A program made the position numbers and the translations under genes. From the IMG/VR virus record IMGVR_UViG_3300028603_000002, positions 1 through 64,000 of that record: DNA of 64,000 nucleotides. One strand, written 5' to 3'. The stretch is from a virus. Lineage: Duplodnaviria; Caudoviricetes. The notes beneath the pieces were generated by a model that searched no databases, was not told the DNA's origin, and was given only the letters and a program-made list of their open reading frames with translations. Below, one piece after another: positions 42,314 through 62,275 of this stretch (its first letter is position 1; every line of letters begins with the position of its first letter).

Positions 42314-42468
42314 CTGAATTTTTGAGACATTTCTTTGGATTGTGTGGTGAAGCACATCCAAATATATTAAATATATTCCTGTATTCAACACCAATTGTAT
42401 ATATAGGGATTAAAATAAAATCATACCTAACAAGTTTTAAACATCAAAATCATGATGAAGTTTCATAA
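42310..42468 (+). CDS. Small hypothetical protein (52 aa, MTEFLRHFFGLCGEAHP)
   Basis: ATGA overlap with thioredoxin; H..G.CGE.HP followed by a hydrophobic stretch. Confidence 0.5.
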   Translation: MTEFLRHFFGLCGEAHPNILNIFLYSTPIVYIGIKIKSYLTSFKHQNHDEVS

Positions 42469-43279
42469 GGATAAATTATTAATATCCGAAGATTTTTACA
42501 GCATCCAGGGCGAAGGGATAACAAGTGGCTATCCGTCTTATTTTATCCGTGTTGCAAATTGTAATTTGAATTGTGGCGCGACTCCATCCTTAGTAAATAA
42601 GTTTAAGAAGGGAGAAGAAACTGCTACACCTGGAAATTTTATTGGGGATCTACATAGCCAAGGAAAGGCCTCATGGACATGCGACACGATCCCTGTTTGG
42701 GCACGAGGAGAAAATCATGATTTTGATTATCTAATTAATAGGTGGAAAGAACAAGGAATATATGATGATATAGCAAGTGGTCTAATACACCTTATATGGA
42801 CTGGTGGAGAACCAACACTACCACCACACCAAACAAGCATATTTAATTTTTATAAACATTGGATTAAATTGGATCCTTCTATAAAACCATTTATTGAAAT
42901 TGAAACAAATGGTACATTAGAAATTGATAATTCATTATTTAGTTTATTGGATCAAATTAATTGCAGTCCTAAATTAGGTAATAGTGGAATGAGTCCATCA
43001 CAACGCATAGTTCCAAAAGCTATTGAATGTATAAAGGAACATTACAATTATCAATTTAAGTTTGTAATTAGTACTGAGGATGATATTTTTGAAATGTTTA
43101 ATACATTTATTGAACCATTTAGCATACCTTTAAAGAAAGTAGTTTGCATGCCTGGATTAGATGACCAAAATAATTTCCATGAACGAACTAGATTTGTTAT
43201 GGAAATGGCAAAAAAGTATAAGTTTATTGGATTAACTAGACTCCATGTTTCGGCATGGGATCGTACAACTGGCGTTTAA
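42452..43279 (+). CDS. queE: 7-carboxy-7-deazaguanine synthase (radical SAM)
   Basis: FYSIQGEG, FIR..CNLNC..(35 aa)..CDT, TGGEP, IETNGT, CSPK, KFV, RLH. Confidence 0.92.
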   Translation: MMKFHKDKLLISEDFYSIQGEGITSGYPSYFIRVANCNLNCGATPSLVNKFKKGEETATPGNFIGDLHSQGKASWTCDTIPVWARGENHDFDYLINRWKEQGIYDDIASGLIHLIWTGGEPTLPPHQTSIFNFYKHWIKLDPSIKPFIEIETNGTLEIDNSLFSLLDQINCSPKLGNSGMSPSQRIVPKAIECIKEHYNYQFKFVISTEDDIFEMFNTFIEPFSIPLKKVVCMPGLDDQNNFHERTRFVMEMAKKYKFIGLTRLHVSAWDRTTGV

Positions 43280-43500
43280 TGGTTATCTTATCATGGATTG
43301 CCACTATACTAATCCTCGCAGGTTGTATTGCAAATGCTAGAAAACATCATGTTTTGGCGGTAGTATTATGGACACTTGGTGATATATCATGGATAATTTT
43401 TGATATTTACATTGCTAATTATAGTCACATTGTATTAAGTTCAGCAATAATATTCATAAATTTATATGCTATAAAGAATTTGAAGAACGATACAAACTAG
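43279..43500 (+). CDS. Three-TM membrane protein A (PnuC/SemiSWEET half-transporter-like)
   Basis: ATG 43279 overlaps the queE TAA; three hydrophobic helices; paralogue of the next ORF. Confidence 0.55.
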   Translation: MVILSWIATILILAGCIANARKHHVLAVVLWTLGDISWIIFDIYIANYSHIVLSSAIIFINLYAIKNLKNDTN

Positions 43501-43506
43501 TATTTT

Positions 43507-43749
43507 ATGACTTTATCTACTTTAATGATAATATTTTCTTGGGCTGCAACTGCTCTTGTTTTAATTGCTTTTATAGTTAATGCCCGCAAATATCATAGAC
43601 TTGCAGTGTGGTTGTGGATAATTGGAGATATATTATGGATAATTTTTGATATTTACATTGCTAATTTTAGCCATTTGGTATTAAGTTCTGTAATAATTTT
43701 TATAAATTTATATGCAATATACAACTTAAAAAAAAATGGCCCGAGTTAA
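43507..43749 (+). CDS. Three-TM membrane protein B (paralogue of A)
   Basis: Shares SW.AT.L.L...NARK.H.LAV.LW..GDI.WIIFDIYIAN.SH.VLSS.IIFINLYAI with A. Confidence 0.55.
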   Translation: MTLSTLMIIFSWAATALVLIAFIVNARKYHRLAVWLWIIGDILWIIFDIYIANFSHLVLSSVIIFINLYAIYNLKKNGPS

Positions 43750-44206
43750 TGTCGGTATTGATCCCAAATATTTAGCAGACCAACACTTGATTGCAGAATC
43801 AGTGGAAATAATAATGATTACAGGTGGATTGAAGAAAAATAATTTTAAAATTAAAAGTGCGATACCTCCCTTCTTTAAAATGGGGAAAGGACATATAAAC
43901 TTTTTTAAAAATAAAATTGTTTATTTGAAGAGAAGGTTAGATGAAGTAAATAAAGAAATGGATAATAGAGGGTTTAAAAATAGTACTAATATTGATTTGG
44001 ATGAATATCCTGAAGATTTATTAAATGATTGGGAACCTTCTAAAATTGATTCAGAAATTATTAGAAGGCGAGTTGTTGAAAGATTAATTACTAGAATAAA
44101 GGGTAAACCTGGTTCTAAATTTTATAGATATAATCGAGTATTAATAGGAGATAAAATAGATATCTTCGCAAATGAATTAAATAATTCTAAGTTGTATTTC
44201 GTATGA
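43736..44206 (+). CDS. denV: Pyrimidine-dimer DNA glycosylase (T4 endonuclease V-like)
   Basis: MARVN...LADQHLIAE..EI, IP..FKMGKGHINFF.NK..YL.RR....EM..RGF. Confidence 0.85.
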   Translation: MARVNVGIDPKYLADQHLIAESVEIIMITGGLKKNNFKIKSAIPPFFKMGKGHINFFKNKIVYLKRRLDEVNKEMDNRGFKNSTNIDLDEYPEDLLNDWEPSKIDSEIIRRRVVERLITRIKGKPGSKFYRYNRVLIGDKIDIFANELNNSKLYFV

Positions 44207-44823
44207 TGTTAAAAACAGCAAATTCAAATATAATTCTTGATGATCAAGAACGCAATAAAATGATATTAGATGCGGCAGAAGCATATGGTAATTTTTTAGA
44301 TGCCTTAAAAATAGATTGGAGAAACGACCCTAATTCAGCAGACACTCCATTAAGAGTAGCTAAATCATATGTTAATGATTTAATTGCGGGTTGTTATACA
44401 AACCCACCAAAAATTACAAGATTTCCAAATGATCAACATTATAATGGTATAGTATTTTGCGGTGATATAGATGTAAAATCTTTGTGCAGTCATCATAACC
44501 TCCCATTTTTTGGTAAGGCTTATGTTGCATACATCCCAGATGAAAATGGAACAGTAATTGGTTTAAGTAAATTGAACCGAGTAGTAGAATGGTATGCAAG
44601 AAGACCACAAATACAAGAACAATTAACAACTCAAATACATGATCAATTGAATGATGTCATTTCGGATAATGCAGGTATTGCAGTCATGATTAAAGCAAAG
44701 CATATGTGTTCATGTTTACGGGGGGTGAAACATGACAGTTATATGGTTACTAGTAAATTGAGCGGGGCATTTTATAATGATGCATCTGCCAAAGGTGAAT
44801 TTTTTGAATTTATTAAATCTTAA
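44203..44823 (+). CDS. folE: GTP cyclohydrolase I
   Basis: DTPLRVAK, SLCSHHNLPFFG, GLSKLNR, RRPQIQEQLT, HMCSCLRGV. Confidence 0.96.
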   Translation: MMLKTANSNIILDDQERNKMILDAAEAYGNFLDALKIDWRNDPNSADTPLRVAKSYVNDLIAGCYTNPPKITRFPNDQHYNGIVFCGDIDVKSLCSHHNLPFFGKAYVAYIPDENGTVIGLSKLNRVVEWYARRPQIQEQLTTQIHDQLNDVISDNAGIAVMIKAKHMCSCLRGVKHDSYMVTSKLSGAFYNDASAKGEFFEFIKS

Positions 44824-44826
44824 ACA

Positions 44827-45489
44827 ATGAATAATAAATCAAATAAAATTTCTGTGATATTGTTTACAGGTGGGATGGATTCAACAGTTGTTGCACACCA
44901 ATCTAAAGAAAAGGGTAATGATGTTTATTGTTTAACATTGTCGCAGGGTGGTTTAAATTCAATTGAAGTTGAGAAATCAAAACAACTATGTAGCCATCTG
45001 GGGGTAAAAAGTATAATATATGATATGTCTTCATATTCAGACTTAGTTGATAAACAAGTCACTAATTCATGTGGGTATAGTGAGGGAAATGAAGATGATA
45101 TTGTTAATAATTTTATTCCTAATCGCAATGCAATATTTATACTTTTAGGACATTCTCTATGCCAGAATATAATGAGAAGGAAGTCTGTAGATAAGGGTGA
45201 GGTATTGTTAGGTATGTTAAGCAGCGACCCGGATTATCCTGATTCAAGGCTAGAATTTTTTCAGGGAATGACACGTGTATTAAATATGGGGTCTTTAGAA
45301 GGCACTATTGAAGTAGGTGTTCCTTTATGGGATTACTCAAAATATGAAGTCTATAAGTATTTAAAAGAAAATAAAATACCAATTGAAATGACGTGGAGTT
45401 GTAATGAAAATGAACCTATTCCATGTGGTAAATGTTATGGGTGTACACAAAGAAAAAGACTTAATAAACAATATAATATTCAAATATGA
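44827..45489 (+). CDS. queC: QueC-family ATPase, paralogue 1
   Basis: TGGMDS, FIPNRN, YPDSR, TWSC...CGKCYGC Zn site. Confidence 0.88.
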   Translation: MNNKSNKISVILFTGGMDSTVVAHQSKEKGNDVYCLTLSQGGLNSIEVEKSKQLCSHLGVKSIIYDMSSYSDLVDKQVTNSCGYSEGNEDDIVNNFIPNRNAIFILLGHSLCQNIMRRKSVDKGEVLLGMLSSDPDYPDSRLEFFQGMTRVLNMGSLEGTIEVGVPLWDYSKYEVYKYLKENKIPIEMTWSCNENEPIPCGKCYGCTQRKRLNKQYNIQI

Positions 45490-46148
45490 AAAAGTGCATT
45501 TTATTAGCTTCAGGTGGTTTAGATACTCAAATATCTATGGCAATGTTAAATGAAGATGGATATGACATACTACCTATCTATTTTGATTATGGGCAACAAA
45601 CATCAAAAAAAGAAATTCCTGCATTAAAAAAATATTCCAACAGCATATTAGGTAAAGACCCAGAAATAAGGAAATTGGATAATTATACGAGTGTATTGGA
45701 GAATATGTGGGCATTGTCTGGTGATGTTTCAGAGACATATAATGATAAAGAAAAAATATTCATCCCAGGTAGAAATATCATGTTTTTGTTATTTTCAGCT
45801 GTGATTGGATATTATGATAATCGTTATGAATTAGTATTATCATTGCATAAATCAGATACAATTTCTGGAGATTGTAAAATTGATTTTACAGAAGCATTTC
45901 AACATGCTTTAACATTAGGTATGAGCACACCCAAATATCCAGTAGAATATAAAATCATCGCCCCTTTAAAAGATATGGAGAAATGGGAGGCAATACAGGT
46001 TGGTGCTTCATTAGGTATTGATTTTTCTGAGTCGTGGAGTTGTGATGATAGCAAAGAAGAACATTGCGGAGTATGTCAACAATGTACTGAACGCAAAAAA
46101 ATGTTTAATAAAGCGAATATTACAGATCCTACAATTTATTTACAATGA
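45486..46148 (+). CDS. queC: QueC-family ATPase, paralogue 2 (divergent active-site loop)
   Basis: SGGLDT, FDYGQ, FIPGRN, SGDCK in place of YPDCR, SWSC...CGVCQQC. Confidence 0.85.
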   Translation: MKKCILLASGGLDTQISMAMLNEDGYDILPIYFDYGQQTSKKEIPALKKYSNSILGKDPEIRKLDNYTSVLENMWALSGDVSETYNDKEKIFIPGRNIMFLLFSAVIGYYDNRYELVLSLHKSDTISGDCKIDFTEAFQHALTLGMSTPKYPVEYKIIAPLKDMEKWEAIQVGASLGIDFSESWSCDDSKEEHCGVCQQCTERKKMFNKANITDPTIYLQ

Positions 46149-47113
46149 ATTTAAAGGATAAGTTAGATGAATTTACTTATTTAAATAAGACCGTTAAAAA
46201 TTCTGAAGTTTTTAAGTTGGGTGTTACTGAGTATAATTTATACGCAAAATTTGAATTTCAATTATTTGGTGGTAGTATTAAGGCCCGAGCTGCATATGAA
46301 ATATTGGAAGATGGTATTAATAGGGGTGTAATAAATGAAAATACAACTATAATAGAATCATCTTCTGGTAATTTTGCAATTGCAATGTCGATGTTTTGTA
46401 AAAAATTAGGTTTGAAATTTATTGCGGTTGTTGATATATTAACTAATCCTAATGCTATTAAATTTTTGAAGTTTTTTGCTCATGAGGTTGTTGTTATTAA
46501 CGAAAGAGATGATAGGGGAGGTTTTTTATTAAATCGACTTAAATATATCAAAGAGTATACATCAAACAATAAAAATATATATTGGACAAATCAATATGAA
46601 AATGAATGCAATTATCTTGCACATTACAAATATACCGCGGAAGAAATAATAGAACAAGTACCTAATTTAGATATCATATTCATTGGGGCAGGAACTTGCG
46701 GGACGTTATCAGGGGTATCAAGAAAATTAAAAGAATACAATCCTAAAATCAAGGTTGTTGCAGTTGATGTTGAGGGTTCTTCAATATTTGGGTTGATACC
46801 TAAAACTCGTTTTATCCCAGGTATGGCTTCAAGTATAAAACCACCTTTATTGAATAGAGCTTTGTATGATGAGATAATGATTATAAGCGAGGAAGAAATA
46901 ATTTATTCTTGTTATAGCTTACTTGAAAAACATATGATATTTGGTGGTGGGTCTTGTGGTGCAGTTTTTGCTGCAATTGAAAGATCATTTATATCATCGC
47001 GAATCCCATTAAATTCAAATGTATTATTTTTATGTCCTGACGGTGGTCGGTTTTATATTGATACTATTTATAACAAAGAGTGGGTAAAAGAAACATATAA
47101 TATAGAAATATGA
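46145..47113 (+). CDS. sbnA: SbnA-like PLP enzyme (2,3-diaminopropionate biosynthesis; cysteine synthase fold)
   Basis: YAK.E...GGSIKAR, ESSSGN, GGFLLNR, YWTNQY.N, GTCGT, GSSIFG..RFIPG, PDGGRFYIDTIYN.EW; paired with an SbnB-like gene. Confidence 0.85.
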   Translation: MNLKDKLDEFTYLNKTVKNSEVFKLGVTEYNLYAKFEFQLFGGSIKARAAYEILEDGINRGVINENTTIIESSSGNFAIAMSMFCKKLGLKFIAVVDILTNPNAIKFLKFFAHEVVVINERDDRGGFLLNRLKYIKEYTSNNKNIYWTNQYENECNYLAHYKYTAEEIIEQVPNLDIIFIGAGTCGTLSGVSRKLKEYNPKIKVVAVDVEGSSIFGLIPKTRFIPGMASSIKPPLLNRALYDEIMIISEEEIIYSCYSLLEKHMIFGGGSCGAVFAAIERSFISSRIPLNSNVLFLCPDGGRFYIDTIYNKEWVKETYNIEI

Positions 47114-47985
47114 AAGTTATTACAGAATTACCAGAATATAGTTGGAGTGAATTGATAGATATAATTGGAATGGTAGTTGCAGAAAATGATTTCTGTCAAC
47201 CGATTAAACCATATTTATCATTTCCAGATCCAAGCGCAAGAATTATTGCAATGCCTGCCGCAGTTGGTGGTTCGATAAGAAAAGCAGGTATAAAGTGGAT
47301 ATCTAGTTTCCCAGAAAATCATAATAAGGGATTACCACGAGCTCATTCCGTTTTAATTTTAAATGATTATGACACTGGTGTTCCATTGATTACATTTAAT
47401 ACAGCGGAATTAAGTGCTTTGCGTACCGCCGCTGTAACGGGTTATTTTTTACACCAGTATATGATGTTTAATGAAGATTTAAACTCCCTGGGTATTATTG
47501 GTTATGGTCCTATTGGGCAATGTCATGAAAGTATGATACAGACTATTTTTCCATTTGTGAAAATAATGATTTGTGATCAAAAACATATTACAAATTCAAA
47601 ATGGGAAACATATACAAACTATAAAAATATGATTGGGAATGTTGATGGTATTATTACATGTACTGCAGGATCTGATTCTAATCATTATATTGAAGAAATA
47701 ACTGATAATATAAAAGTATTTTTAAATATATCATTGAGAGATATGAAAATATCAAAATCAAATTTTGAGTATTTTGATAGGTGGGTAGTTGATTCGTGGG
47801 ATGAAGTTAATCGACATGGTACTGATTTTTCTTTATTTGAAAAGAATTACAAATTTAACAATGAACAATGGTCTACACTCTTTGACATGGATGAAACATT
47901 TTTGAAAGGTAAAATATGTTTTAATCCAATGGGTATGGCATGTTTTGACATTGCAATTGCATCATATTTTTTAAATAAATTATAG
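47110..47985 (+). CDS. sbnB: SbnB-like ornithine cyclodeaminase/mu-crystallin family enzyme
   Basis: QPIKPYL, RIIAMPA, GIKWISSFPEN...GLPRA..VLILND..TG.P, SALRTAA, GYGPIG (NAD-binding), ISLRD, FNPMGMA.FDIA. Confidence 0.85.
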   Translation: MKVITELPEYSWSELIDIIGMVVAENDFCQPIKPYLSFPDPSARIIAMPAAVGGSIRKAGIKWISSFPENHNKGLPRAHSVLILNDYDTGVPLITFNTAELSALRTAAVTGYFLHQYMMFNEDLNSLGIIGYGPIGQCHESMIQTIFPFVKIMICDQKHITNSKWETYTNYKNMIGNVDGIITCTAGSDSNHYIEEITDNIKVFLNISLRDMKISKSNFEYFDRWVVDSWDEVNRHGTDFSLFEKNYKFNNEQWSTLFDMDETFLKGKICFNPMGMACFDIAIASYFLNKL

Positions 47986-47990
47986 CAATA

Positions 47991-49166
47991 ATGGATAAAA
48001 AATTTATATATATACCATCTTTAAGTGCAGGTGGATATAAACAATATTTAATAGAAGATAAAATATTAGTGCACTCGGGAATCAACTCAAGATTTTATTC
48101 AGATGATTTTCCTGAAAATTTTAGATACAAAAATTTTCTATTAACTGCCGGACACTTGTATAAAAAGAAAAATATACGAGAAGAAATGGGTTTAGAAGAT
48201 TCATTTGTATTTGGTGATTCAGGTGGTTTCCAGTTTGCCTCTGGTGCAAAGGTCTTTGATAAAACTATAAGGCATGAATTATTTACTTTTTTGGAAGGAA
48301 ATTGTGATATTGCAGCAAATTTAGATATTCCGCCTAAAATGACTTTAGCTTCAAAATTTGATGAATGTCTAGAATTATCAATTGATAATTTTAAATATTT
48401 CTATGATAATCAAAGTGGCAAAGTTAAATACTTAAATATCTTGCATGGAACAACACCGGAACAATTTATCCATTGGTATGATGGTATAAAGGATTTTGAA
48501 TTTTCTGGATGGGCAACTGGTACTGCATTTAAACTTGTTAATTGGATGTATACATTACATACATTGATATCTAACAGAGAATTTGAAAAAATAAGCTGTG
48601 AATATTTTCATATTTTTGGTGTTTCATCACCCTTTGATTTTTTAATAGCAGCAAAGATTCAGGAATGTATTAACAAGTATCATGATGGTAGAGTAACAAT
48701 TACAGTAGATTCAAGTTCACCTGGGTTAGGTGCTGTGTATGGATACTATTATCATCATGTTGATTATAATAAACAATCATTTAAGAAAATGAGGTTTTTT
48801 AAAGGGAACGATATTGTGTACCCAGATGCACCATTACCATGTACAATTGGTTGTCCTGCATGCAAGAATTCCAGCATTAAACATTTTAATACATATGATA
48901 CAATGATGACAAATCATGTTGTATTACACAATACACTTATTTTTGCCAAAGCCGCCGCAGATGCAAATGATTTAATAAAAGTACCAAGTGAGGTATTAGA
49001 AGTGTTAGTTGGTAGAAACATAATAAAAATATTGAAAAGTATTGAATTAATGTTTGTAGAAAATAGTTTGCATGTATATAATAAGTTTAAACAATTATAT
49101 TTGAAGTATGGTGGTGACCATGAAAGTGAGCAAGAAGTAAAACATAATTTTTTTAATTTTAATTGA
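47991..49166 (+). CDS. dpdA: TGT-family transglycosylase (DpdA-like; inserts 7-deazaguanine into DNA)
   Basis: DSGGFQ, LDIPP, ILHG, HIFG, DSSS, Zn site C..GC..C...HN; clustered with que genes and overlapping polB. Confidence 0.85.
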   Translation: MDKKFIYIPSLSAGGYKQYLIEDKILVHSGINSRFYSDDFPENFRYKNFLLTAGHLYKKKNIREEMGLEDSFVFGDSGGFQFASGAKVFDKTIRHELFTFLEGNCDIAANLDIPPKMTLASKFDECLELSIDNFKYFYDNQSGKVKYLNILHGTTPEQFIHWYDGIKDFEFSGWATGTAFKLVNWMYTLHTLISNREFEKISCEYFHIFGVSSPFDFLIAAKIQECINKYHDGRVTITVDSSSPGLGAVYGYYYHHVDYNKQSFKKMRFFKGNDIVYPDAPLPCTIGCPACKNSSIKHFNTYDTMMTNHVVLHNTLIFAKAAADANDLIKVPSEVLEVLVGRNIIKILKSIELMFVENSLHVYNKFKQLYLKYGGDHESEQEVKHNFFNFN

Positions 49167-51640
49167 TGTACCAGAATATATACTACGATAAAGACGAAAA
49201 GATAATGCATCTGTGGGATGATGAGTTGGGGTATAAGAAATTCCCATGGAAGAATTATGCGTTTAAATTAAATCATAATGGTGAATATAAAACATTATTT
49301 GGAGACAAAGTTACCAAAGTTAGAAAATATCATTATAATGATAGTAATATATTTCAATCTGATGTAGATCCTGAGACGGCATATATAGTCGAAAATTATT
49401 TAGACTCTGATGAAATTTCAATAAATCATAGAATATTATGGTATGATATTGAAGTAGAAAAAACAGATTCCTTTAGTACAGCACAAGAAGCAAGAAATAA
49501 AATAATATCAGTTACGCTATGGTGTAATACAGATTCGAAGTTTATAACATTAATTCTTGGAAATAAATTTGATGTTAAATCAGCCAGAGAAAATTTTGAA
49601 TTACATTTCTTTGACAATGAAGAAGATTTATTAGAAGCATTTGTTGATTTGTGGGTATCATATAACCCAACTATCATAAGTGGATGGAACATTGATTATT
49701 TTGATACACCATATACAATTAATAGAATCAAAAAAATACTAGGTGATTATGATGCTAATAGATTATCTCCTATTAAACAGATAAAAATGGAATCCGATGG
49801 TCGGTATAGTATAAAAGGAATTACTAATTTAGATTATTTGTTTCTTTATAAAAGATTCACTCAGAATGAATTACCTAAATATTCACTCGATTATGTAGCA
49901 AAAGAAGAATTGGGAAGAGGCAAGATTGAATATGAAGGATCATTACAGCAATTATATGAAAATAATCCTGAATTATTTATAGAATACAATATTATTGATG
50001 TCGATCTACCAATTGCATTAGATAATAAATTACAATTAATTGAATTAGTTTTAACTATATGCCACGAGTGTCATGTCCCATACAACGCAATATGGCATAC
50101 AAGTCACTATTTAGATGGTGCTGCTATAACATTCTTAAATAGAAAAAATATAGTAGTACCAAATAAGAAATATAATACAGGTGATGGTACCCAAGCTCAA
50201 GGTGCATATGTAAAAGATCCACAGGTTGGTTATTATAAATGGGTATATGATTTAGATTTAAAAGCACTATATCCATCCACAATGCGTTCATTGAATATCT
50301 CCCCAGAGACTAAAGTGGGAAAAATATATAATTGGGACGAGGCGACATTTTTAAAGGATGTCGATATAACATATGATGTAGAGATACAAAATAACAGAGG
50401 AAATATTGATAAAGAAAATCTAAAAACTTTCTTTGAAGAAAATCAAATTTCAATTGCTAGCAATGGTGTATTATATAGTACTAAAAATGTTGGTTTTGTT
50501 CCTGAGATACTTGAATACTGGGATAATGAACGTACTGTATTCAAGGATAAGATGAAAGAGTATAAAAGGAAAGGCGATGACGAAAAAGGAAAATATTATT
50601 ATCTTCGTCAATGGTCAAAAAAGATTATCAGCAATTCATTTTACGGTGTATTGTTGTTAGAAACTTTCAGATTTTATGATAAAGATAATGGCGAAGCAAT
50701 AACATTGACTGGGCAATCGGTTATTAAATTTACAACTAAAGTAGCAAATAGTGTTTATAATAAAGAACTTGGAACTGTAGGGAAAGATTATTGTATTTAT
50801 ACTGACACAGATAGTGTATTTTACACTTCATTGCCGTTTATTGAGAGAGACGGTATTGACCCAGATAATGATGATGAATCAATAAAGAAAACATTAGAAG
50901 TAGCTGATTTGGCACAATCTACAATAAATGCAGCATATGATGAATATGCAAGAAGATTACATAATATTGATAAACATTGTTTTATTATTAAACAAGAAGT
51001 TGTTGCAAGAAGAGCATTATTTGTAGCTAAGAAAAGATACACTCAATGGATGGTATATGAAGAAGGTGTGTCTGTTAATAAAATGGATGTTAAAGGATTA
51101 GATACTGTAAGATCAGATTTCCCGCAATCTTTTAGGACTATTGTAGAGAAGTTATTTGAAATGGTTTTACATGATAAAGAACAAGATGAAGTAGAAAAAT
51201 TAATAGTTGATTTTAAAAAGAAGAATGTAGAGAATGAGTTATATTCACGCATGCGCCCAACTGGTGTAAAAAATATAACTAAATACAAATTTGATAATAG
51301 AGACATATTCCATTTTATGAAAGGAACACCGGTTCATGTAAAAGCAGCATTATCATATAATGATTTCTTAGAATATAAGAATGTAAGGGGATATAAGTCA
51401 ATAACAGATGGTGATAAGATAGTATATGCTTATTTAAGAGATAACCCGTTAAAACTATCCGCAATAGCATTACCAGTGGATGATGTGCCGAAAGAAGTAG
51501 AAGATTTTGTGTATAATTATATTGATGATGCACAAATTTTTGACAGTTTATTAAAAGATAAAATACAAAAAATATTTACTGCCCGCGGATGGGGGCAAAT
51601 AATTTTAAACAATACAATAAAACAATTCTTTGAATTATGA
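49166..51640 (+). CDS. Family B DNA polymerase (T4 gp43-like)
   Basis: Exonuclease YDIE, GWNIDYFD, YSLD, YNIIDV; polymerase DLKALYPS, KIISNSFYG, YTDTDS, KKRY, KGL. ATG 49166 overlaps the dpdA TGA. Confidence 0.96.
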   Translation: MYQNIYYDKDEKIMHLWDDELGYKKFPWKNYAFKLNHNGEYKTLFGDKVTKVRKYHYNDSNIFQSDVDPETAYIVENYLDSDEISINHRILWYDIEVEKTDSFSTAQEARNKIISVTLWCNTDSKFITLILGNKFDVKSARENFELHFFDNEEDLLEAFVDLWVSYNPTIISGWNIDYFDTPYTINRIKKILGDYDANRLSPIKQIKMESDGRYSIKGITNLDYLFLYKRFTQNELPKYSLDYVAKEELGRGKIEYEGSLQQLYENNPELFIEYNIIDVDLPIALDNKLQLIELVLTICHECHVPYNAIWHTSHYLDGAAITFLNRKNIVVPNKKYNTGDGTQAQGAYVKDPQVGYYKWVYDLDLKALYPSTMRSLNISPETKVGKIYNWDEATFLKDVDITYDVEIQNNRGNIDKENLKTFFEENQISIASNGVLYSTKNVGFVPEILEYWDNERTVFKDKMKEYKRKGDDEKGKYYYLRQWSKKIISNSFYGVLLLETFRFYDKDNGEAITLTGQSVIKFTTKVANSVYNKELGTVGKDYCIYTDTDSVFYTSLPFIERDGIDPDNDDESIKKTLEVADLAQSTINAAYDEYARRLHNIDKHCFIIKQEVVARRALFVAKKRYTQWMVYEEGVSVNKMDVKGLDTVRSDFPQSFRTIVEKLFEMVLHDKEQDEVEKLIVDFKKKNVENELYSRMRPTGVKNITKYKFDNRDIFHFMKGTPVHVKAALSYNDFLEYKNVRGYKSITDGDKIVYAYLRDNPLKLSAIALPVDDVPKEVEDFVYNYIDDAQIFDSLLKDKIQKIFTARGWGQIILNNTIKQFFEL

Positions 51641-53252: not shown

Positions 53253-53674
53253 GTATTTTTGATCATATTAATAATTTAACTTACAAGAAAGTACCGTGGG
53301 AAAAGTTAAATGAATCTGAAAAGAAATCATTTAGTCCTTATATGACTGATAGAATTTTCAGTATGAATAGTGATCTGTTACCAATTGTGAATTTCTTACA
53401 GCGATATACAGTTGGAGAACTAACTCCGGAATTTGTATATAAATTGTATTATCATTTAATGCCCAAAAAGAAAATATATACAAAATATATTAAAGGGGCA
53501 ACAAAGGAAAAATACAAAAAAGAGTTAGTTGAAATTATGAAAAAATATTATCAATTAGCATCATATGAAGTTATTGATTATTTAGATATATTGATGGATG
53601 AAAATCCTAATGAAGTAATTAATATAATTACTAAATACGGATATACTAAAAAAGAGGCTAAGAAATTATTATGA
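53249..53674 (+). CDS. Clamp loader small subunit (gp62-like)
   Basis: MSIFDHIN, FSPYM..R.FSM, KYIK; follows gp44. Confidence 0.8.
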   Translation: MSIFDHINNLTYKKVPWEKLNESEKKSFSPYMTDRIFSMNSDLLPIVNFLQRYTVGELTPEFVYKLYYHLMPKKKIYTKYIKGATKEKYKKELVEIMKKYYQLASYEVIDYLDILMDENPNEVINIITKYGYTKKEAKKLL

Positions 53675-54384
53675 AAGTAGGATTAGTTTTGCATGGTTTA
53701 GTTGGAAGTATAACGGGAAAGAATTATCAGATGATGGGTGGAAGTGATAAAGTATTGGAACACTCATCTGAACATAATATAAAAAATATAATTAATCAAT
53801 ATGATACAGATGTATATGTACATACTTGGAGTGTTGAGTTAGAAGAACAAATTAATGAAGTGTACAAGCCAGTGAAAATGGAAGCAACGGAACAAATACA
53901 ATTTGAAGTTCCTGATTATATTAAGGCAGATCATAAAAGAGCATTTGCACATTTAAGTAGGTGGTATTCATTTATGAGAGCAGTTGATTTAATATCATCA
54001 AATGATTATACACATATAATTGTTCAGAGATTTGATTTAGTTTGGAATGTTGTTCCTAAGTTTGAAGAAATGGATCCTAATTATGTATGGACAGGAATAA
54101 TACCGTTAAACCATTCATATGAATGGTGTGATAGGTGGATATGTAGTTCGTATGAAAACATGAAAAAGTTTGCTACTTTATATGAAAAAATTCCCAATTA
54201 TATGGCTACAAATGGAGATTTACCATCATCAAAACAATATGGTGGAATATCAAGTCATAAATTAACTAATCATCATGCAAAGAAATTAGCTTTGGAAGGA
54301 AAAAGAAAGTATACATTTGGTGGATATAGTTTACAACAGAATGATTATAATGAGGTTAGGCGCCAATACTATGGAGATAATTAA
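53671..54384 (+). CDS. Putative glycosyltransferase-like protein
   Basis: KVGLVLHG, DVYVHTW, SRWYS, Y..II..RFDL, CDRW pattern. Confidence 0.55.
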   Translation: MKVGLVLHGLVGSITGKNYQMMGGSDKVLEHSSEHNIKNIINQYDTDVYVHTWSVELEEQINEVYKPVKMEATEQIQFEVPDYIKADHKRAFAHLSRWYSFMRAVDLISSNDYTHIIVQRFDLVWNVVPKFEEMDPNYVWTGIIPLNHSYEWCDRWICSSYENMKKFATLYEKIPNYMATNGDLPSSKQYGGISSHKLTNHHAKKLALEGKRKYTFGGYSLQQNDYNEVRRQYYGDN

Positions 54385-54395
54385 CAAAGTATATT

Positions 54396-54758
54396 ATGGA
54401 AACAATAGATAAACCATGGGGCTTATATGAGGCAATAATTGCTATTGATAATATCAATCAATTTACATTGAAGCGAATAATAATAGATCCTGAAGAACAT
54501 CCATCGGATCAAAAACATGCACATAGAAATGAAATTTGGATGGTATATGCTGGAGTAGGCACATTGATTACTGAATCAGATGCAGGAAAAAATGTAATAA
54601 TAATTCGTGAAGGAGATGTTGTTCATATTGAAAAAAATACTTGGCATTTAATTATTAGCAGTGGGGATGAACCATTGGAATTCTTTGAAATACAATATGG
54701 TGAGCTGTGCGCCGAGGAGGATATAACGAGAAGATTTGACAAATATGAAAGAGAATAG
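54396..54758 (+). CDS. Cupin, type II phosphomannose isomerase C-terminal-like
   Basis: KPWG.YE, QKHAHRNEIW, WHLI, EIQYG..EEDI.R..D.Y.R. Confidence 0.85.
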   Translation: METIDKPWGLYEAIIAIDNINQFTLKRIIIDPEEHPSDQKHAHRNEIWMVYAGVGTLITESDAGKNVIIIREGDVVHIEKNTWHLIISSGDEPLEFFEIQYGELCAEEDITRRFDKYERE

Positions 54759-56340
54759 AATTAAGAGAGTATTCATACCAACTGCAGGGATAGGTAGTAG
54801 GTTAGGTGAATTGACTATGGTGTTTAACAAGTGTATGTTACCATATAGAGGCAGACCTGCTATACATGCTATTATCCAAGCATATCCTGGTGAATGTGAA
54901 TTTATAATTGCATTGGGTTATGGTGGAGATATAGTGATGGATTATCTAATTACAGTATTCCCTGATAAAAAATTTAAATTTATTTTTATTAAAAAATATG
55001 ACCCATCAGAAGGTGGTAGTTTATTAGAAACATTATATCAATGCAGAGAACATTTCAACCAACCATTTATATTCCACGCAGCAGATAGTATTACACCCAG
55101 AGGATTTAACGTAAATAGTAAACATAATGTCATATTAACCAGTGAAAAATTAAATATTGATAAGTATACGAAATTAACAGTTGGTAAAAGTAAAGTAAAA
55201 GAGATTAAGGTTGATAGATATGATATAGACACTTATATGATAGGTGTTTATTCAATCATAGATTATAAGAAATTTGTTAAAGGCATCAATTATAATTACA
55301 AACATATTACTAATACAAGTGACACAGCTGTATTAGATTATATGATGAATAAAAAATGTAAGTTTGAATATTTACATATCGGTACTGGGTTTTGGGTTGA
55401 TTATGGAGATCCAATACAGGTAGAAAAACATATGAAAGATAATGTATTAGGTCTAAATACATTACCTAAAAAGAATCAAATGATATATCGATATAAAGAT
55501 CAAATTATTAAAGTATTTTCAGAACCATGGAAAAGTAGAAAGTTATATGAAACGTATAAAGTTTTGAAACCTAGTGGATTAATGGTGGATGTAGTCAATT
55601 ATTCAAAATATACATTTATAACAAAATATGCTCCAGGAATTACATTAAGAAAACATTTAGAAGGGAATTTAAATGATATATCTTTCTATAATGTTTTGGA
55701 AAAATTTCATGCTGATAATATAATCAAAAGTACACCTAAACAGAAAAGAGAATTCGTTGAGAAATTCTATATTGAAAAAACAAGAAATCGAGTCGCTGAA
55801 TTTTTAAGAACTGATCCGGTGAATGATATCGTATTAGATGATAAATTTTCGATTAATGGTATTGAAATAGATAGCATAACAGATCTGTTAGATAGGTTAT
55901 TCGAATATTTACGAACAATGGATTTATTTAATGTAACTTGTGGAAAAGTACATGGAGATTTAGTCTTAGATAATATCATTATTAATGGTAATGATATTAA
56001 ATTTATTGATTGGAGAGAAGAAACAATAGAAGGAGTACATGGTTACGGCGATCAAGTATATGATATAGCAAAATTATTACATAGTTGTTGTTTTGATCAT
56101 AATAATTTTAATGATTCACATCTTTTATTAGTAAAGAATCAACATGTAATAGTTCAAATGGTAGGACATAACTCTAAATTAATGAATATCTTAGATAATC
56201 TCCCATTGAAATACTTGCATATTTTAGTTGGGTTGATTTGGTTAAATATGTCACCATTGCATGGTAGGGAATATGGAAGATATTTATTCTTTGCTGGATT
56301 ACATAGAATAGCATTTTGGTTAAACGAAGACGATGAATAG
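54745..56340 (+). CDS. Fusion of an NTP-transferase domain and a choline/aminoglycoside-kinase-like domain
   Basis: N-terminal IPTAGIGSRL...NKCML and W.DYG; C-terminal HGDLVLDNII, FIDWR, GDQVYDIAKL. Confidence 0.8.
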   Translation: MKENRIKRVFIPTAGIGSRLGELTMVFNKCMLPYRGRPAIHAIIQAYPGECEFIIALGYGGDIVMDYLITVFPDKKFKFIFIKKYDPSEGGSLLETLYQCREHFNQPFIFHAADSITPRGFNVNSKHNVILTSEKLNIDKYTKLTVGKSKVKEIKVDRYDIDTYMIGVYSIIDYKKFVKGINYNYKHITNTSDTAVLDYMMNKKCKFEYLHIGTGFWVDYGDPIQVEKHMKDNVLGLNTLPKKNQMIYRYKDQIIKVFSEPWKSRKLYETYKVLKPSGLMVDVVNYSKYTFITKYAPGITLRKHLEGNLNDISFYNVLEKFHADNIIKSTPKQKREFVEKFYIEKTRNRVAEFLRTDPVNDIVLDDKFSINGIEIDSITDLLDRLFEYLRTMDLFNVTCGKVHGDLVLDNIIINGNDIKFIDWREETIEGVHGYGDQVYDIAKLLHSCCFDHNNFNDSHLLLVKNQHVIVQMVGHNSKLMNILDNLPLKYLHILVGLIWLNMSPLHGREYGRYLFFAGLHRIAFWLNEDDE

Positions 56341-56860
56341 AACATTACAAAAAGCGTGCGAAGTATCATTGCATAATGATTTCACACATGTACTTGAATT
56401 TGGAGTATATAAAGGTGGCACATTAAAACAACTATCTAAATTTTATAATTCAACTGTACATGGATTTGATTCTTTTGAAGGTTTGCCTGAAGATTGGGTT
56501 GGTACTAACCACAAGAAAGGAGGCATGAGTGCTGGTGGAAGAATACCTGAAATACCAAATTGTAAGATCTGGAAGGGTTGGTTTGAGAATACTATTCCAG
56601 AATACTTAAAAGAGTATAAAGGTCCAATTAAACTATTGCATATTGATTGTGATTTATATAGTAGCACAAAAACAATATTAGAACTATTAAATGATAATAT
56701 AGTTAGTGGTACAATATTATGTTTTGATGAATGGTATTATAATCATAATCCAAAGTACAAAGACCACGAACAGAAAGCATTTTTTGAATGGATAGGAGAT
56801 AGGGAATTTGTATTGGAATTACCAATTGAAGATGAACGACAAATAGTACATATATTATGA
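56333..56860 (+). CDS. TylF/MycF-type sugar O-methyltransferase
   Basis: LEFGVYKGGT, GFDSFEGLPEDW, KGWF..T, HIDCDLYSST, FDE. Confidence 0.88.
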   Translation: MNRTLQKACEVSLHNDFTHVLEFGVYKGGTLKQLSKFYNSTVHGFDSFEGLPEDWVGTNHKKGGMSAGGRIPEIPNCKIWKGWFENTIPEYLKEYKGPIKLLHIDCDLYSSTKTILELLNDNIVSGTILCFDEWYYNHNPKYKDHEQKAFFEWIGDREFVLELPIEDERQIVHIL

Positions 56861-57840
56861 TATATATAGGATTGATGAACCCTATAATAACTAGGGCAGT
56901 TTTAAATTTCAATAAAAAACACAATGAATATCTAGGCTTGATAATCAGTACATCCCAGTTTAGTCATTGTGGAGGATATTATCCATCAAAATATGATTTT
57001 AATTACACCTTGAAATTAATAAAAGATATTGATTCACATATTAGAATTGGCAGAGATCATTATGATTCATTGGATAATGATTTACATTGCAGCGATATTG
57101 GAATAGTTGATTATATACATATTGATCCAATTTATGACAGCAATGGCAAGAAAAATGATATCATCGGTTATACGTCAGATGTTATTTATATGATGAACGA
57201 ACTAGTAAAATTTGATAAGAAGATTAAATTTGAAATCGGCACTGAACAAAGATTATTGAAATTTAGTATACAAGATTTTGATTATTTCTTAAGTAATATT
57301 CAACAAGTATACGGAGAGGATAAGTTAGAGTACATAGTAGTTCAAAGCAATGAAGATTTATCATATAACAATTTATTGACACAACAAGCTCCTGAAATTA
57401 CTTACGATGATTCTGCTAGATATCATCAAATGATAACAATAGCTAAAGAATACTATCCCAATGTTAAATTGAAACAACACAACCAAGATTTTGTCCCTGC
57501 CAATGATATAAGAAATAAATTGAACCTTAATTTTGGTGGATCTAATTTAGATGCTATAAATTTAGGTCCACAAATAGCTCAAATGTTTAATGAGATTGTG
57601 TATGAGGAATTAAACCCAACCCGGAGAATAGAAGTAGTTAGAAGAATACTTAAGAATGAAGCATTTAAAAAGTGGTGTACATATAATAATATAATGGATA
57701 CAACACCAGAAAAAATGTTTACTTTATTTGCACATTATATTTATAAGGAATTAGATTATTCAATAGATCACAATAGCATATTTGAAAAATTTTATCCTGA
57801 ATTTGAAAAATTTATTTTAGAAAGATTGCCTGGAGGATAA
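56857..57840 (+). CDS. GatZ/KbaZ (tagatose-phosphate epimerase/aldolase)-like TIM barrel
   Basis: SQ...GGY, RDH, IHIDP, FEIGTE, VVQS, KQHNQDF, AINLGPQ. Confidence 0.65.
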   Translation: MIYIGLMNPIITRAVLNFNKKHNEYLGLIISTSQFSHCGGYYPSKYDFNYTLKLIKDIDSHIRIGRDHYDSLDNDLHCSDIGIVDYIHIDPIYDSNGKKNDIIGYTSDVIYMMNELVKFDKKIKFEIGTEQRLLKFSIQDFDYFLSNIQQVYGEDKLEYIVVQSNEDLSYNNLLTQQAPEITYDDSARYHQMITIAKEYYPNVKLKQHNQDFVPANDIRNKLNLNFGGSNLDAINLGPQIAQMFNEIVYEELNPTRRIEVVRRILKNEAFKKWCTYNNIMDTTPEKMFTLFAHYIYKELDYSIDHNSIFEKFYPEFEKFILERLPGG

Positions 57841-57842
57841 GC

Positions 57843-58214
57843 ATGATTTTAGCAGTTGATTTAGATGATACATTATGTAAACGACCACCTGATAATCAAA
57901 TAATAAATTTAAATGGTTGGGACTTTAGAATTTATAAGTATACACTGTGCACACCAATAATAAAAAATATTCAGTATGTGAATAAATTAAAAAGAACAAT
58001 TAAAAAATGTAAAATGTACATTTATACTTCCAGGGGAATGTCATCATTTAAAGGAGATATTGATTTAATAGAAGCTAATTTGAGAAGCATTACTGAAACA
58101 CAATTAAATCAGTGGAATGTAAATTACGACAAATTAATATTTGGAAAGTTACATTATGATTTAATAATTGATGATAAAAGTATAAATTTATCTGATATAA
58201 ATTTTAAATTCTGA
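57843..58214 (+). CDS. HAD-superfamily phosphatase (capsule-biosynthesis type)
   Basis: VDLDDTLC, YTSRG, YDKLIFGK..YDLIIDDK. Confidence 0.85.
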   Translation: MILAVDLDDTLCKRPPDNQIINLNGWDFRIYKYTLCTPIIKNIQYVNKLKRTIKKCKMYIYTSRGMSSFKGDIDLIEANLRSITETQLNQWNVNYDKLIFGKLHYDLIIDDKSINLSDINFKF

Positions 58215-58232
58215 AAAATAATTATTAATTTT

Positions 58233-58457
58233 ATGGACATGAAGAAGGGAAGATTATACAAAAAGAAAAAAGAGCTGAATGATGCTTATTATATTTTCCT
58301 TGGAGATAGCGGTTTACCTGAGTTAGGGACGTTTTTATGTGTTGTCCCTATTAATGATACCCGATTAAGAATAGTCTCGGTAGAACTAAGGAAAGCAAGT
58401 GAAATGAAGATTGTATCAGAAGAAGAATTTCGTAACTATATAGATGTATCTTGGTAA
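58233..58457 (+). CDS. Hypothetical protein
   Basis: 74 aa; TAATG overlap with queD. Confidence 0.45.
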   Translation: MDMKKGRLYKKKKELNDAYYIFLGDSGLPELGTFLCVVPINDTRLRIVSVELRKASEMKIVSEEEFRNYIDVSW

Positions 58458-59011
58458 TGTGGTTAATTGATAAAACATTTGAATTTGATTATGGTCATAG
58501 AGTTTGGACTCAAAAACTAAATTCTGACTTTAGTATTGATAATAGATGTGTATGTAGACATTTACACGGTCACCGAGGAAAAGTACATGTTTATTTAAAA
58601 TCAGATACTTTAGATGAAACTGGGATGGTTACTGATTTTAAACATTTGAATTGGTTTAAGAAATTCTTAGATGATGTGTTGGATCATAAAATGATTCTTG
58701 ATATGGATGATCCAACATTATTTTTATTGTATTCATTAGCTACTGAACATTATTTAATAGAAAATAAAGAATTTAATTATTATACAGTAGATATAGCAAA
58801 ATTAGAAACTGATTTAGGTGATACTTTTACTGATGCTGAAATGGAATTATATGAGGGATTAGTAATAGTTAACTTTGTACCGACATCAGAAAACTTAGCA
58901 AAGTGGTTAGCAGAAATAACGTCTAAGAAAATGAAAGAAATGGGGGTGAATGTAAGTCATATTGAATTCTTTGAAACTCCAAAAAGTAGAAGTACATATT
59001 ATATTGATTAA
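58457..59011 (+). CDS. queD: 6-carboxy-5,6,7,8-tetrahydropterin synthase
   Basis: FDYGHR, CRHLHGH, GMVTDF, LDH, PTSENLA, ETP; long internal insertion. Confidence 0.92.
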   Translation: MWLIDKTFEFDYGHRVWTQKLNSDFSIDNRCVCRHLHGHRGKVHVYLKSDTLDETGMVTDFKHLNWFKKFLDDVLDHKMILDMDDPTLFLLYSLATEHYLIENKEFNYYTVDIAKLETDLGDTFTDAEMELYEGLVIVNFVPTSENLAKWLAEITSKKMKEMGVNVSHIEFFETPKSRSTYYID

Positions 59012-59028: not shown

Positions 59029-59235
59029 ATGACAGAATCATGTTATTATTTAGTAAAGGTAAAAATTCATATTATAGATGATGGTAAAGCAAAAGACGCT
59101 ACTGAACAACATCTTGTTAAAGCTGTATCAGTAGTTGATTGTGATGTAAAGATTAATGAACATTATGAAAATATGATGCATGATTGGCAGATAGTATCTG
59201 TCGCTGAAACTAAAATAATGGATGTTATTGAATGA
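59029..59235 (+). CDS. DUF4494-like small protein
   Basis: YYLVKVK...GK.K..TEQHLV.AVSV.D.....E...W.I.SV.ETKI resembles a Bacteroidota-associated family (recalled). Confidence 0.55.
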   Translation: MTESCYYLVKVKIHIIDDGKAKDATEQHLVKAVSVVDCDVKINEHYENMMHDWQIVSVAETKIMDVIE

Positions 59236-60311
59236 AAATAATTCTAATAGAGTCTGCTGACAAACAACATAGGTATAGGAAGAGGTGGGATATGATAGTA
59301 ATGTCAGCACTGAAAAGTTTGGGGTATGATGTATTCCAAACTGGGGTGTTAGATAGCATTGGATTTGAGCATTTTGAAATGGCGGAAGCTGAACATAGTA
59401 GCAGACAATTACAAAGAATACTTTCATATTTAAATTTTGAATTTAGTTTAGATGATAAAAATGTAGATGAATTAGTAATTTTTATTAATGAATATGCCTA
59501 TAATGCAGCAATATTAGAATTGAAAAGATATGCTGATTTAAATAGGAGGAATTGGAAATTTATTGGTCTATGGCCTACAAAATTAATTTTTAATAAAAAG
59601 CACCCATATTCTAGAAGTAGAAGATTGGATGCGTGGTCGATGAAATTTGAACATTTATTATTTCAGACATATGATGCTAATATTTTCAATCATGAATTTG
59701 CAAAGACGCTTTTCTTAAAGAAGAGAAAAATAAGAAAAGAGGAATTAGTTAAAAAAGCACATTATATTGGGGAGCCGTTTGAATATCTAACAGAAATTGC
59801 GAAGGAATACAATCTGGAAAATAAGGAGGATATAATTCTAATTCCAGCAGGTATAGATGCAGACCATCAAATTAGAATTATTGAAATATTCAAAAGAGAA
59901 TTGCCAAAATATGAATTTATTTATTTAAATGATAATAAATTAGATAGGAAACAGTATTATCAAATGCTTGCTAAAGCTAAAATGATGTTATCAATTAATA
60001 CATATGATTATTATGATGATACTTTTTTAAGTTTCGAAGCATTGGCATTCAAAGTAATACCATTAGCACCAGAGTTCACACGCTTGGGAAGAACACTTCC
60101 CAGAATGTTATATACATTTGATTACTGGATTGTAATGCCACCCATGATCAATTTTGTTCGACAGAGAGGAGATATACAGAAAAAGATATCAAATTTAATG
60201 GATAATTATGAGAGTCTTACACATTATTTAGTAGAGGATACTGAAAAAATGAAACAGAGATATAGTATAGATAAATTAATTGATGTTATAGAAAAATTAA
60301 AAGAAGAGTAA
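59232..60311 (+). CDS. Divergent GT-B glycosyltransferase-like protein
   Basis: IILIE...RY...W, FIGLW, LDRKQYYQMLAKAK, FEALAFKVIPLAP; the canonical donor-binding residues look altered. Confidence 0.55.
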   Translation: MKIILIESADKQHRYRKRWDMIVMSALKSLGYDVFQTGVLDSIGFEHFEMAEAEHSSRQLQRILSYLNFEFSLDDKNVDELVIFINEYAYNAAILELKRYADLNRRNWKFIGLWPTKLIFNKKHPYSRSRRLDAWSMKFEHLLFQTYDANIFNHEFAKTLFLKKRKIRKEELVKKAHYIGEPFEYLTEIAKEYNLENKEDIILIPAGIDADHQIRIIEIFKRELPKYEFIYLNDNKLDRKQYYQMLAKAKMMLSINTYDYYDDTFLSFEALAFKVIPLAPEFTRLGRTLPRMLYTFDYWIVMPPMINFVRQRGDIQKKISNLMDNYESLTHYLVEDTEKMKQRYSIDKLIDVIEKLKEE

Positions 60312-60313
60312 TT

Positions 60314-60589
60314 ATGGAAAATAATAAGATGAATGTAAATTTAAATCTAAATGAAACTACTGCTATACAATGTGATAATTGTAATGGTGAAATATTTGTT
60401 CCTGTTTTAATGTTAAGAAAAATACCGGCATTGTTAACAGGCACTTCACAGCCACAATTAGTACCAATACAAGTATTCAAATGTGATATTTGCAATGCAT
60501 TAATGGAAGAAATGTGGCCTAAGAATTTACCAAAACCAGGAGTAAAAATAAATATGTCAAATTCACCGAATGATACTAATAATGATTAA
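60314..60589 (+). CDS. Small Zn-ribbon protein
   Basis: CDNC ... CDIC. Confidence 0.65.
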   Translation: MENNKMNVNLNLNETTAIQCDNCNGEIFVPVLMLRKIPALLTGTSQPQLVPIQVFKCDICNALMEEMWPKNLPKPGVKINMSNSPNDTNND

Positions 60590-60600
60590 ATAAATAGATT

Positions 60601-60756
60601 ATGAAAAAAAGTTCTAAAAAAAGATGGTGGTTGAATACAAAACCATTGTACAAAGAATTTGGAGAAAGTAAATTCAAAAGAGTTAAGAGAAGCGAAACAA
60701 TTCGACCTTCAGATAGAATTGAAAGGTTATTGAAAAAGGAGTATGCCAAGTCATAA
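60601..60756 (+). CDS. Small basic ORF (51 aa)
   Basis: MKKSSKKRWWLNTKP...; fills the gap and overlaps the next gene. Confidence 0.35.
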   Translation: MKKSSKKRWWLNTKPLYKEFGESKFKRVKRSETIRPSDRIERLLKKEYAKS

Positions 60757-61708: not shown

Positions 61709-61741
61709 TTTTTGTATATATATTATTGAAAATAAAGTTAC

Positions 61742-62275
61742 ATGAGGAATAAAGTTGTATGTGAATATAATTGTTTAATGTTAGATGTTGAATTAAACAA
61801 TTGGTCTAATTGGGAAGATATAATAACACCAACCGACATCTACATTTCTGATACCATTCCTGGTTTAGAACCAACTCCACATATCACTCTTCTGCATGGA
61901 ATTGAACCTAATACACGATTAAATGAATTTGGTCATATACTACCACGAGCAAATGAATATAATGTCGAAGTAGGTGGATTACAATATTTTAACAAGTCTA
62001 CATATGATGTATTATTTTTAAAAGTAAAATGTTCTTTAATTAATGAAGTTAATTTAAAATTAAAAGAAACAATAAAATACCACCCCACCTTCCCAGTATA
62101 TACTCCACATATAACAATAGCATATTTAAAACCTGGAAAGGCAAATAAGTATGTATATAGCATACCTATAGTTAATAAACATATAAAGGCAATAAATTAT
62201 ACATATTCAACAACAAAAAATAGACCATACAGATTTAAGGAGTTTTATGGAACAACAACTACCAAAGTTAATTAA
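61742..62275 (+). CDS. 2H phosphoesterase, Acb1/T4 gp57B-like
   Basis: Two HxT motifs, PHITLLHG and PHITIAYLKPG. Confidence 0.75.
   Translation: MRNKVVCEYNCLMLDVELNNWSNWEDIITPTDIYISDTIPGLEPTPHITLLHGIEPNTRLNEFGHILPRANEYNVEVGGLQYFNKSTYDVLFLKVKCSLINEVNLKLKETIKYHPTFPVYTPHITIAYLKPGKANKYVYSIPIVNKHIKAINYTYSTTKNRPYRFKEFYGTTTTKVN

Follow-up and report, generated by a model that had tools for sequence, protein, structure and literature searches.

Gene organization of the locus

The window, that is, the whole stretch of DNA analyzed here, comprises the first 64 kb of the complete 171,908-bp IMG/VR virus record IMGVR_UViG_3300028603_000002, which has terminal repeats. Two adjacent genes at 46145-47985 encode relatives of SbnA and SbnB. 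In bacteria this enzyme pair serves siderophore and antibiotic pathways, and its chemistry is the same as that of CmnB/CmnK of capreomycin. The first gene (46145..47113, + strand, TIGR03945) encodes a 322-amino acid (aa) pyridoxal 5'-phosphate (PLP) enzyme of the N-(2-amino-2-carboxyethyl)-L-glutamate synthase type, and the second (47110..47985, + strand, TIGR03944) a 291-aa nicotinamide adenine dinucleotide (NAD)-dependent dehydrogenase with the ornithine cyclodeaminase fold.

The pair lies inside a 7-deazaguanine DNA-modification operon, since QueE, FolE and QueC genes were found upstream of it and a gene of the tRNA-guanine transglycosylase (TGT)/DpdA fold, followed by PolB, directly downstream. 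On the + strand, the upstream genes are a QueE-like radical S-adenosylmethionine (SAM) enzyme for the 7-carboxy-7-deazaguanine (CDG) synthase step (42452..43279; phrog_2076 'QueE-like radical SAM', E 5.7e-42), FolE, a GTP cyclohydrolase I for the first step of the deazaguanine pathway (44203..44823; PF01227, E 6.7e-49), and two QueC paralogues, QueC1, a PP-loop ATPase with a four-cysteine zinc site (44827..45489; PF06508, E 2.2e-38), and QueC2, a candidate ligase of L-2,3-diaminopropionate (Dap) to CDG (45486..46148; PF06508, E 2.5e-33). The DpdA-like gene (47991..49166, + strand, 391 aa), a candidate DNA-guanine transglycosylase on fold and motif evidence, starts 5 bases after SbnB, and its 3' end overlaps the start of PolB. 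A QueD gene of the 6-carboxytetrahydropterin synthase type (58451..59011, + strand; PF01242, E 4.7e-29) was located 10 kb downstream of the pair. Along the run FolE, QueC1, QueC2, SbnA, SbnB, DpdA-like gene and PolB, each junction is an overlap or a gap of ≤5 bases. The ATGA overlaps that a preliminary description of this DNA had given for the pair, with each other and with queC2, are both in the sequence (46145-46148 for QueC2/SbnA, 47110-47113 for SbnA/SbnB).

The block QueC2-SbnA-SbnB-DpdA is not an assembly chimera, because both the QueC2/SbnA and the SbnB/DpdA junction are spanned by contigs that match the window exactly and come from a second landfill study. The SbnB/DpdA junction was likewise spanned in a soil run.

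Identity and integrity of SbnA and SbnB

The SbnA open reading frame (ORF) passed the TIGR03945 cut-off narrowly (354.2 bits, cut-off 349.95, E 4.9e-106), and its nearest solved structures were those of Staphylococcus aureus SbnA (5D84-5D87, E about 1e-62). The PLP lysine (Lys46) is retained, as are Arg131 and Tyr151, the equivalents of S. aureus Arg132 and Tyr152; these two and Ser185 (S. aureus numbering) are the three residues cited as selecting O-phosphoserine (PMC12414870). Among columns conserved in ≥95% of 114 homologues outside the phage clade, 43 of 46 were kept. For the SbnB ORF, TIGR03944 was by far the best family and S. aureus SbnB the nearest solved structure (4M54, E 5e-26). The glycine motif for NAD (IIGYGPIG) and RTAA are kept, together with 62 of the 63 columns conserved at ≥95%, one conserved Glu being replaced by Ser. 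The protein is about 30 residues shorter than its S. aureus counterpart as a result of small loop deletions. The assignment of the two genes in the preliminary description was thus borne out by the best family matches and the nearest structures, and the conserved residues make activity of both enzymes the most likely case, though their exact substrates are less certain.

Compared with SbnA/SbnB of staphyloferrin B synthesis in S. aureus, the phage pair has the same adjacency of a PLP enzyme and a dehydrogenase with the ornithine cyclodeaminase fold, the best structural and family matches, and the same PLP lysine, Arg132/Tyr152 equivalents and NAD motif. It differs in being phage-encoded among deazaguanine and DNA-replication genes, in having no siderophore synthetase or nonribosomal peptide synthetase (NRPS) partner, in the glycine at the Ser185 position, and in the shorter SbnB, which falls under its family cut-off.

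QueC paralogues

Canonical QueC motifs are SGGxDS, YxQxHxxE, VPxRN, YPDC and C(x)8CxxCxxC, with Tyr189 (PMC13329287). QueC1, aligned to 3BL5, has TGGMDS, IPNRN and YPDS and is without YxQxH and Tyr189. QueC2 has SGGLDT, YGQ(x)5E, IPGRN and SGDC, has lost the Tyr of YPDC and is also without Tyr189. The P-loop, PxRN and the four cysteines are retained in both. Close relatives of QueC2 were rare: a set of 5.8 billion proteins gave only 7 (61-65% identity), and when the QueC2 alignment was run against 185,579 prokaryote species, nothing but ordinary QueC at 29-30% identity came up.

For two enzymes with the QueC scaffold, ligation of CDG to a protein N-terminal amine instead of ammonia has been reported (Cap9) or proposed (QatC) (PMC13329287). 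The sequence similarity of QueC1 and QueC2 to QatC and Cap9 is weak.

DpdA-like TGT-fold protein

The 391-aa protein encoded after SbnB had no match in Pfam, PHROG or NCBIfam, and the Pfam models for TGT (PF01702) and DpdA (PF23859) had no match anywhere in the genome. It carries the motif FGDSGGFQ and a zinc-type cysteine cluster (Cys284, Cys288, Cys291). In a library of 1.84 billion proteins, 760 representatives matched it with E ≤0.001; D76, S77, G78, G79 and Q81 and a second aspartate, D240, were invariant among 62 aligned relatives. The family profile matched archaeosine TGT 1IQ8 (E 1.2e-5). The AlphaFold2 (AF2) model was of high confidence (predicted local distance difference test, pLDDT, 94.4), the top 50 Foldseek matches in the PDB were all tRNA-guanine transglycosylases (E about 1e-9), and the protein also resembled phage TGT/DpdA proteins in BFVD and the ESM Atlas. 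BFVD also gave a weak fold match to a 259-aa protein of phage phiST, for which BLASTP of the DpdA-like protein returned nothing; the family profile likewise found nothing in the DpdA3 phages phiST and CP220. Motifs, profile match and predicted structure together assign the protein to the TGT/DpdA fold, and it is a candidate DNA-guanine transglycosylase.

The family to which it belongs is large, of TGT fold and mostly of phage origin, with at least 579 IMG/VR loci, nearly always beside PolB, clamp and clamp loader genes. It may represent an undescribed DpdA subfamily.

Distribution among relatives

To place the block, 80 IMG/VR loci encoding DpdA-like relatives were surveyed over 10 kb around the DpdA-like gene. 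Their common order is ribonucleotide reductase (RNR), FolE, PolB, DpdA-like gene, clamp and clamp loader, and FolE was present at 53-63% identity in 28 of them. QueC1, QueC2, SbnA and SbnB were found in none of the 80 loci within that distance. Three complete relatives (172,973, 159,586 and 158,320 bp) all encode QueD, and neither QueC nor SbnA was found anywhere in them; one annotated complete relative has FolE, QueD and a radical-SAM enzyme. Since the QueC step is missing, these relatives probably stop at CDG, the substrate of QueC enzymes.

Gene order at the relatives' loci varied. In the window (47991-51640) the DpdA-like gene stands before PolB, most relatives (L089-L164) have PolB first with about 2 kb between the two, and the order of the window recurs only in L165. 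In two loci a glycosyltransferase-like gene of GT-B type (weak Pfam matches under the cut-off) lies directly upstream of the DpdA-like gene (L127:8648-9835 and L118:8745-9998), in the slot that is occupied by the QueC/Sbn block in the window; these relatives have FolE, QueD and QueE and no QueC.

From the other side, 84 other SbnA loci were examined. SbnB was present in 64 of them, and QueC, FolE and QueE were not found nearby in any. Four of the 7 close QueC2 relatives have contig fingerprints in common with SbnA and/or SbnB homologues. One fingerprint (12 contigs, longest 163,672 bp) was common to QueC2, SbnA and SbnB, as was another of 4, 4 and 3 contigs (longest 104,989 bp), while the fingerprint of 10,302 bp was common to QueC2 and SbnA, and that of 8,674 bp to QueC2 and SbnB. 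Scanning IMG/VR with SbnA and QueC1, and with the alignments of SbnA and of QueC2, gave no close relative; a scan of JGI metagenomes found SbnA loci of bacterial type only; and blastn and tblastn searches of isolated phages turned up neither a close QueC nor an SbnA in phage surroundings.

Composition and age of the block

The preliminary description had judged the coding strand of this region to be T-rich by eye and took this as a hint of a separately acquired cassette. The T-richness was confirmed by computation. Coding-strand AT skew was 0.009 for SbnA and 0.007 for SbnB (genome gene mean 0.12, standard deviation 0.10), which places both genes at the 2nd-3rd percentile of 113 ORFs of ≥150 aa, and at the 2nd-4th percentile for third-position skew. 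The 1.84-kb SbnA/SbnB stretch falls in the lowest 0.5% of windows of the same size in the first 64 kb. Low AT skew extends to QueE, QueC1 and the DpdA-like gene, and QueE- and DpdA-type genes are present in the relatives too. In other respects the pair is ordinary for the genome, with a GC content of 0.29-0.30, a third-position GC content (GC3) of 0.19 and a codon-usage distance at the 58th-70th percentile.

Phage SbnA sequences formed one clade with 100% support in the Shimodaira-Hasegawa-like approximate likelihood ratio test (SH-aLRT), with a long stem and deep internal branches, and its members are 53-56% identical to the SbnA of the window. By these sequence comparisons the block was added specifically in this clade, yet long ago, because neither its GC and GC3 nor its codon usage stands out, the branches within the phage SbnA clade are deep, and the low skew is common to QueE- and DpdA-type genes, which relatives have as well. 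The cassette proposal therefore held as far as an add-on is concerned, given the absence of the block from the 80 related loci and of QueC and SbnA from the three complete relatives, but not as a recent arrival.

Proposed function and alternatives

As the preliminary description had stated, the pair has no secondary-metabolite partners: IucA/IucC (NRPS-independent siderophore, NIS, synthetase), an AMP-binding adenylation domain and ATP-grasp_4 had no match in the whole genome. It is not without context, however, as it sits in a 7-deazaguanine/DpdA operon with a dedicated QueC paralogue. Among the ligase families searched, the two QueC paralogues are the only ATP-dependent carboxylate-activating enzymes, and both adjoin the pair. 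What was observed is the identity of the genes, the layout of the operon, the co-inheritance and the absence from relatives. We infer all of the chemistry that follows, including the base in DNA, and give an even chance to the reading that SbnA and SbnB form a functional Dap pathway which the phage has recruited to tailor its 7-deazaguanine DNA modification.

Under this proposal, FolE, QueD and QueE would make CDG, and SbnA would condense O-phosphoserine with glutamate, after which SbnB would oxidatively free Dap and 2-oxoglutarate. A PP-loop ligase of the QueC family, most likely QueC2 and perhaps QueC2 together with QueC1, would then activate the CDG carboxylate by ATP, with an amine of Dap in place of ammonia, to give the N-(2-amino-2-carboxyethyl) 7-carboxamide. 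The DpdA-like transglycosylase would exchange guanine in DNA for the deazaguanine. Either order could apply, with insertion after ligation (a free-base route) or before it, ligation then acting on DNA-borne dCDG, which is a known phage DNA base (PMC10516641).

Ligation of Dap to CDG by a QueC-type enzyme is proposed because no other ligase of the searched families was found, because the QueC pair adjoins SbnA/SbnB, and because Cap9/QatC and CmoY offer precedents. Cap9 of type IV CBASS (cyclic oligonucleotide-based antiphage signaling system) and QatC of Qat defence have in common with the proposed phage enzyme the QueC scaffold and the reported (Cap9) or proposed (QatC) ATP-dependent ligation of CDG to a non-ammonia amine. 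In those bacterial defence systems the N-terminus of a protein provides the amine, whereas the one proposed here belongs to a free amino acid in a phage DNA-modification operon. CmoY, a phage homologue of asparagine synthetase, ligates glycine to carboxylated cytosine in DNA (PMC12783734). The CmoA/CmoX/CmoY system of Synechococcus phage S-B43, which yields a glycine amide of 5-carboxymethylcytosine (PMC12783734), resembles the present proposal in that an amino acid is attached as an amide, in an ATP-dependent step, to a carboxyl group on a phage DNA base, and differs in the base (cytosine), the amino acid (glycine, which the phage has no need to make) and the ligase (asparagine-synthetase type).

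Described phage systems for 7-deazaguanine DNA modification include those of Campylobacter phage CP220 (dADG), Cellulophaga phage phiST (dCDG/dDG) and 9g-like phages (dPreQ0/dG+) (PMC6884629, PMC10516641). With such systems this phage has in common FolE, QueD, QueE and QueC-type genes and a TGT-fold DpdA-like protein beside replication genes; it is set apart by two divergent QueC copies and the Dap pathway, and by profile search its DpdA-like protein is not in the DpdA3 family of phiST and CP220. In the literature searched, no paper contained both 'diaminopropionate' and 'deazaguanine', and nothing equivalent was found on SbnA with phage deazaguanine or DpdA hypermodification. If the proposal is true, an amino acid on a 7-deazaguanine in DNA would be without precedent, as would a Dap pathway that serves anything but siderophore and antibiotic synthesis. 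The side chain added to the major groove would be zwitterionic and bear an amine, and would likely block restriction enzymes and other DNA-targeting defences. QueC-type enzymes would then accept small amines besides ammonia, a link between the base pathways of phages and the deazaguanylation of proteins in CBASS and Qat. With its four genes, the block is small enough for testing in Escherichia coli.

Several observations weigh against this proposal. The co-inheritance of QueC2, SbnA and SbnB is circumstantial, consisting of equal contig sizes and counts and not of observed gene order, and the 172-kb phage itself, from soil and landfill metagenomes, is known from metagenomes alone. At the position of SbnA Ser185 the entire phage clade has Gly (Gly183 in this phage), as do 13 of the 120 family members, and two further substitutions close to the active site, Leu for Asn at 40 and Ala for Val at 182, are specific to the clade, for which reason the substrates may differ. 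SbnB scored 198.8 bits with TIGR03944 (E 1.1e-58), under the cut-off of 326.9. Both QueC copies fell below the TIGR00364 cut-off of 150.3 (QueC1 122 bits, QueC2 98 bits), and neither is canonical, as each has lost one of the residues on which E. coli QueC depends. The presence of two paralogues is also left unexplained, as one ligase suffices for an amide.

A variant in which the two copies divide the labour is quite unlikely in our view. QueC1 and QueC2 would here split the two ATP-dependent half-reactions of QueC, one making the Dap amide of CDG and the other activating this product for ring closure by the second amine of Dap; the resulting cyclic amidine (an imidazoline-carboxylate) would be an archaeosine-like charged base replacing guanine in phage DNA.

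The active-site changes could instead mean that the SbnA/SbnB-like enzymes have ceased to make free Dap, and that their substrate is now an intermediate of the deazaguanine pathway or their product a different amino acid. The PLP enzyme might, for instance, attach the aminoacrylate unit directly to one of the nitrogens of 7-amido-7-deazaguanine, or take some nucleophile besides glutamate, after which the dehydrogenase would trim the adduct. The clade-specific substitutions beside the PLP lysine and in the phosphate loop, including the loss of the Ser185 equivalent, would fit such a change, as would the short SbnB under its cut-off, and one of the two QueC copies could provide the amide. We nevertheless hold this to be unlikely. 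SbnA scores above its family cut-off with Arg131 and Tyr151 kept, glycine at the Ser185 position also occurs in the 13 family members noted above, and the near-complete set of conserved SbnB columns fits an unchanged substrate of the N-(1-amino-1-carboxyl-2-ethyl)-glutamic acid (ACEGA) type. QueF was not found in the genome, so there would be no preQ1 amine to alkylate.

A similarly small chance is given to Dap being made for a purpose other than DNA, either as an auxiliary boost to a siderophore or antibiotic pathway of the host, in keeping with the bacterial roles of SbnA/SbnB, or as a building block for sugar and glycosyltransferase genes or virion decoration. A sugar-type module with glycosyltransferase-like genes does lie 6-16 kb downstream. 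The pair, however, is translationally coupled to QueC2, with the DpdA-like gene 5 bases on, and has no such coupling to the sugar genes; it appears to be co-inherited with QueC2; the genome has no Dap-using ligase of known kinds; and related phages have a glycosyltransferase-like gene beside the DpdA-like gene yet no SbnA/SbnB. The preliminary description had raised the sugar cluster and virion modification as possible uses of Dap; no evidence for either was found, though no direct test was made.

That the pair is a hitch-hiking or decaying cassette without current function is highly improbable: third positions are unusually T-rich for the genome and SbnB is shortened with one conserved Glu changed to Ser, but the reading frames are intact, nearly all conserved columns of both proteins are kept, the pair is retained across a deep phage clade, and near-identical copies occur in three studies.

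Neighboring genes and source metagenomes

Between the clamp loader and beyond QueD (53671-58214 and 59232-63743), the window has a nucleotidyltransferase/kinase-like fusion (weak matches), a TylF-type methyltransferase, genes without assigned function and glycosyltransferase-like genes, which possibly form a sugar pathway. The ORF at 59232-60311 matched the relatives' glycosyltransferase at E 0.013, a similarity too weak for a call. A promoter and terminator scan gave results no better than shuffles, and no RNA dataset was among the sequencing runs listed as carrying the stretch.

A pyrimidine-dimer DNA glycosylase of the DenV type (43736-44206; PF03013) lies inside the operon and overlaps the start of FolE; in relative L127 a UvdE endonuclease was found in the comparable region. 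Two tandem small membrane proteins (81 and 80 aa; 43255-43749) with weak YgjV-type similarity are encoded between QueE and FolE, and a homologue stands beside PolB in 24 related loci. Near-identical copies of 43500-50000 were present in two landfill metagenomes and one soil metagenome from different studies, and in one run a contig joins 43719 back to 43500, which fits a tandem duplication of the small membrane genes.

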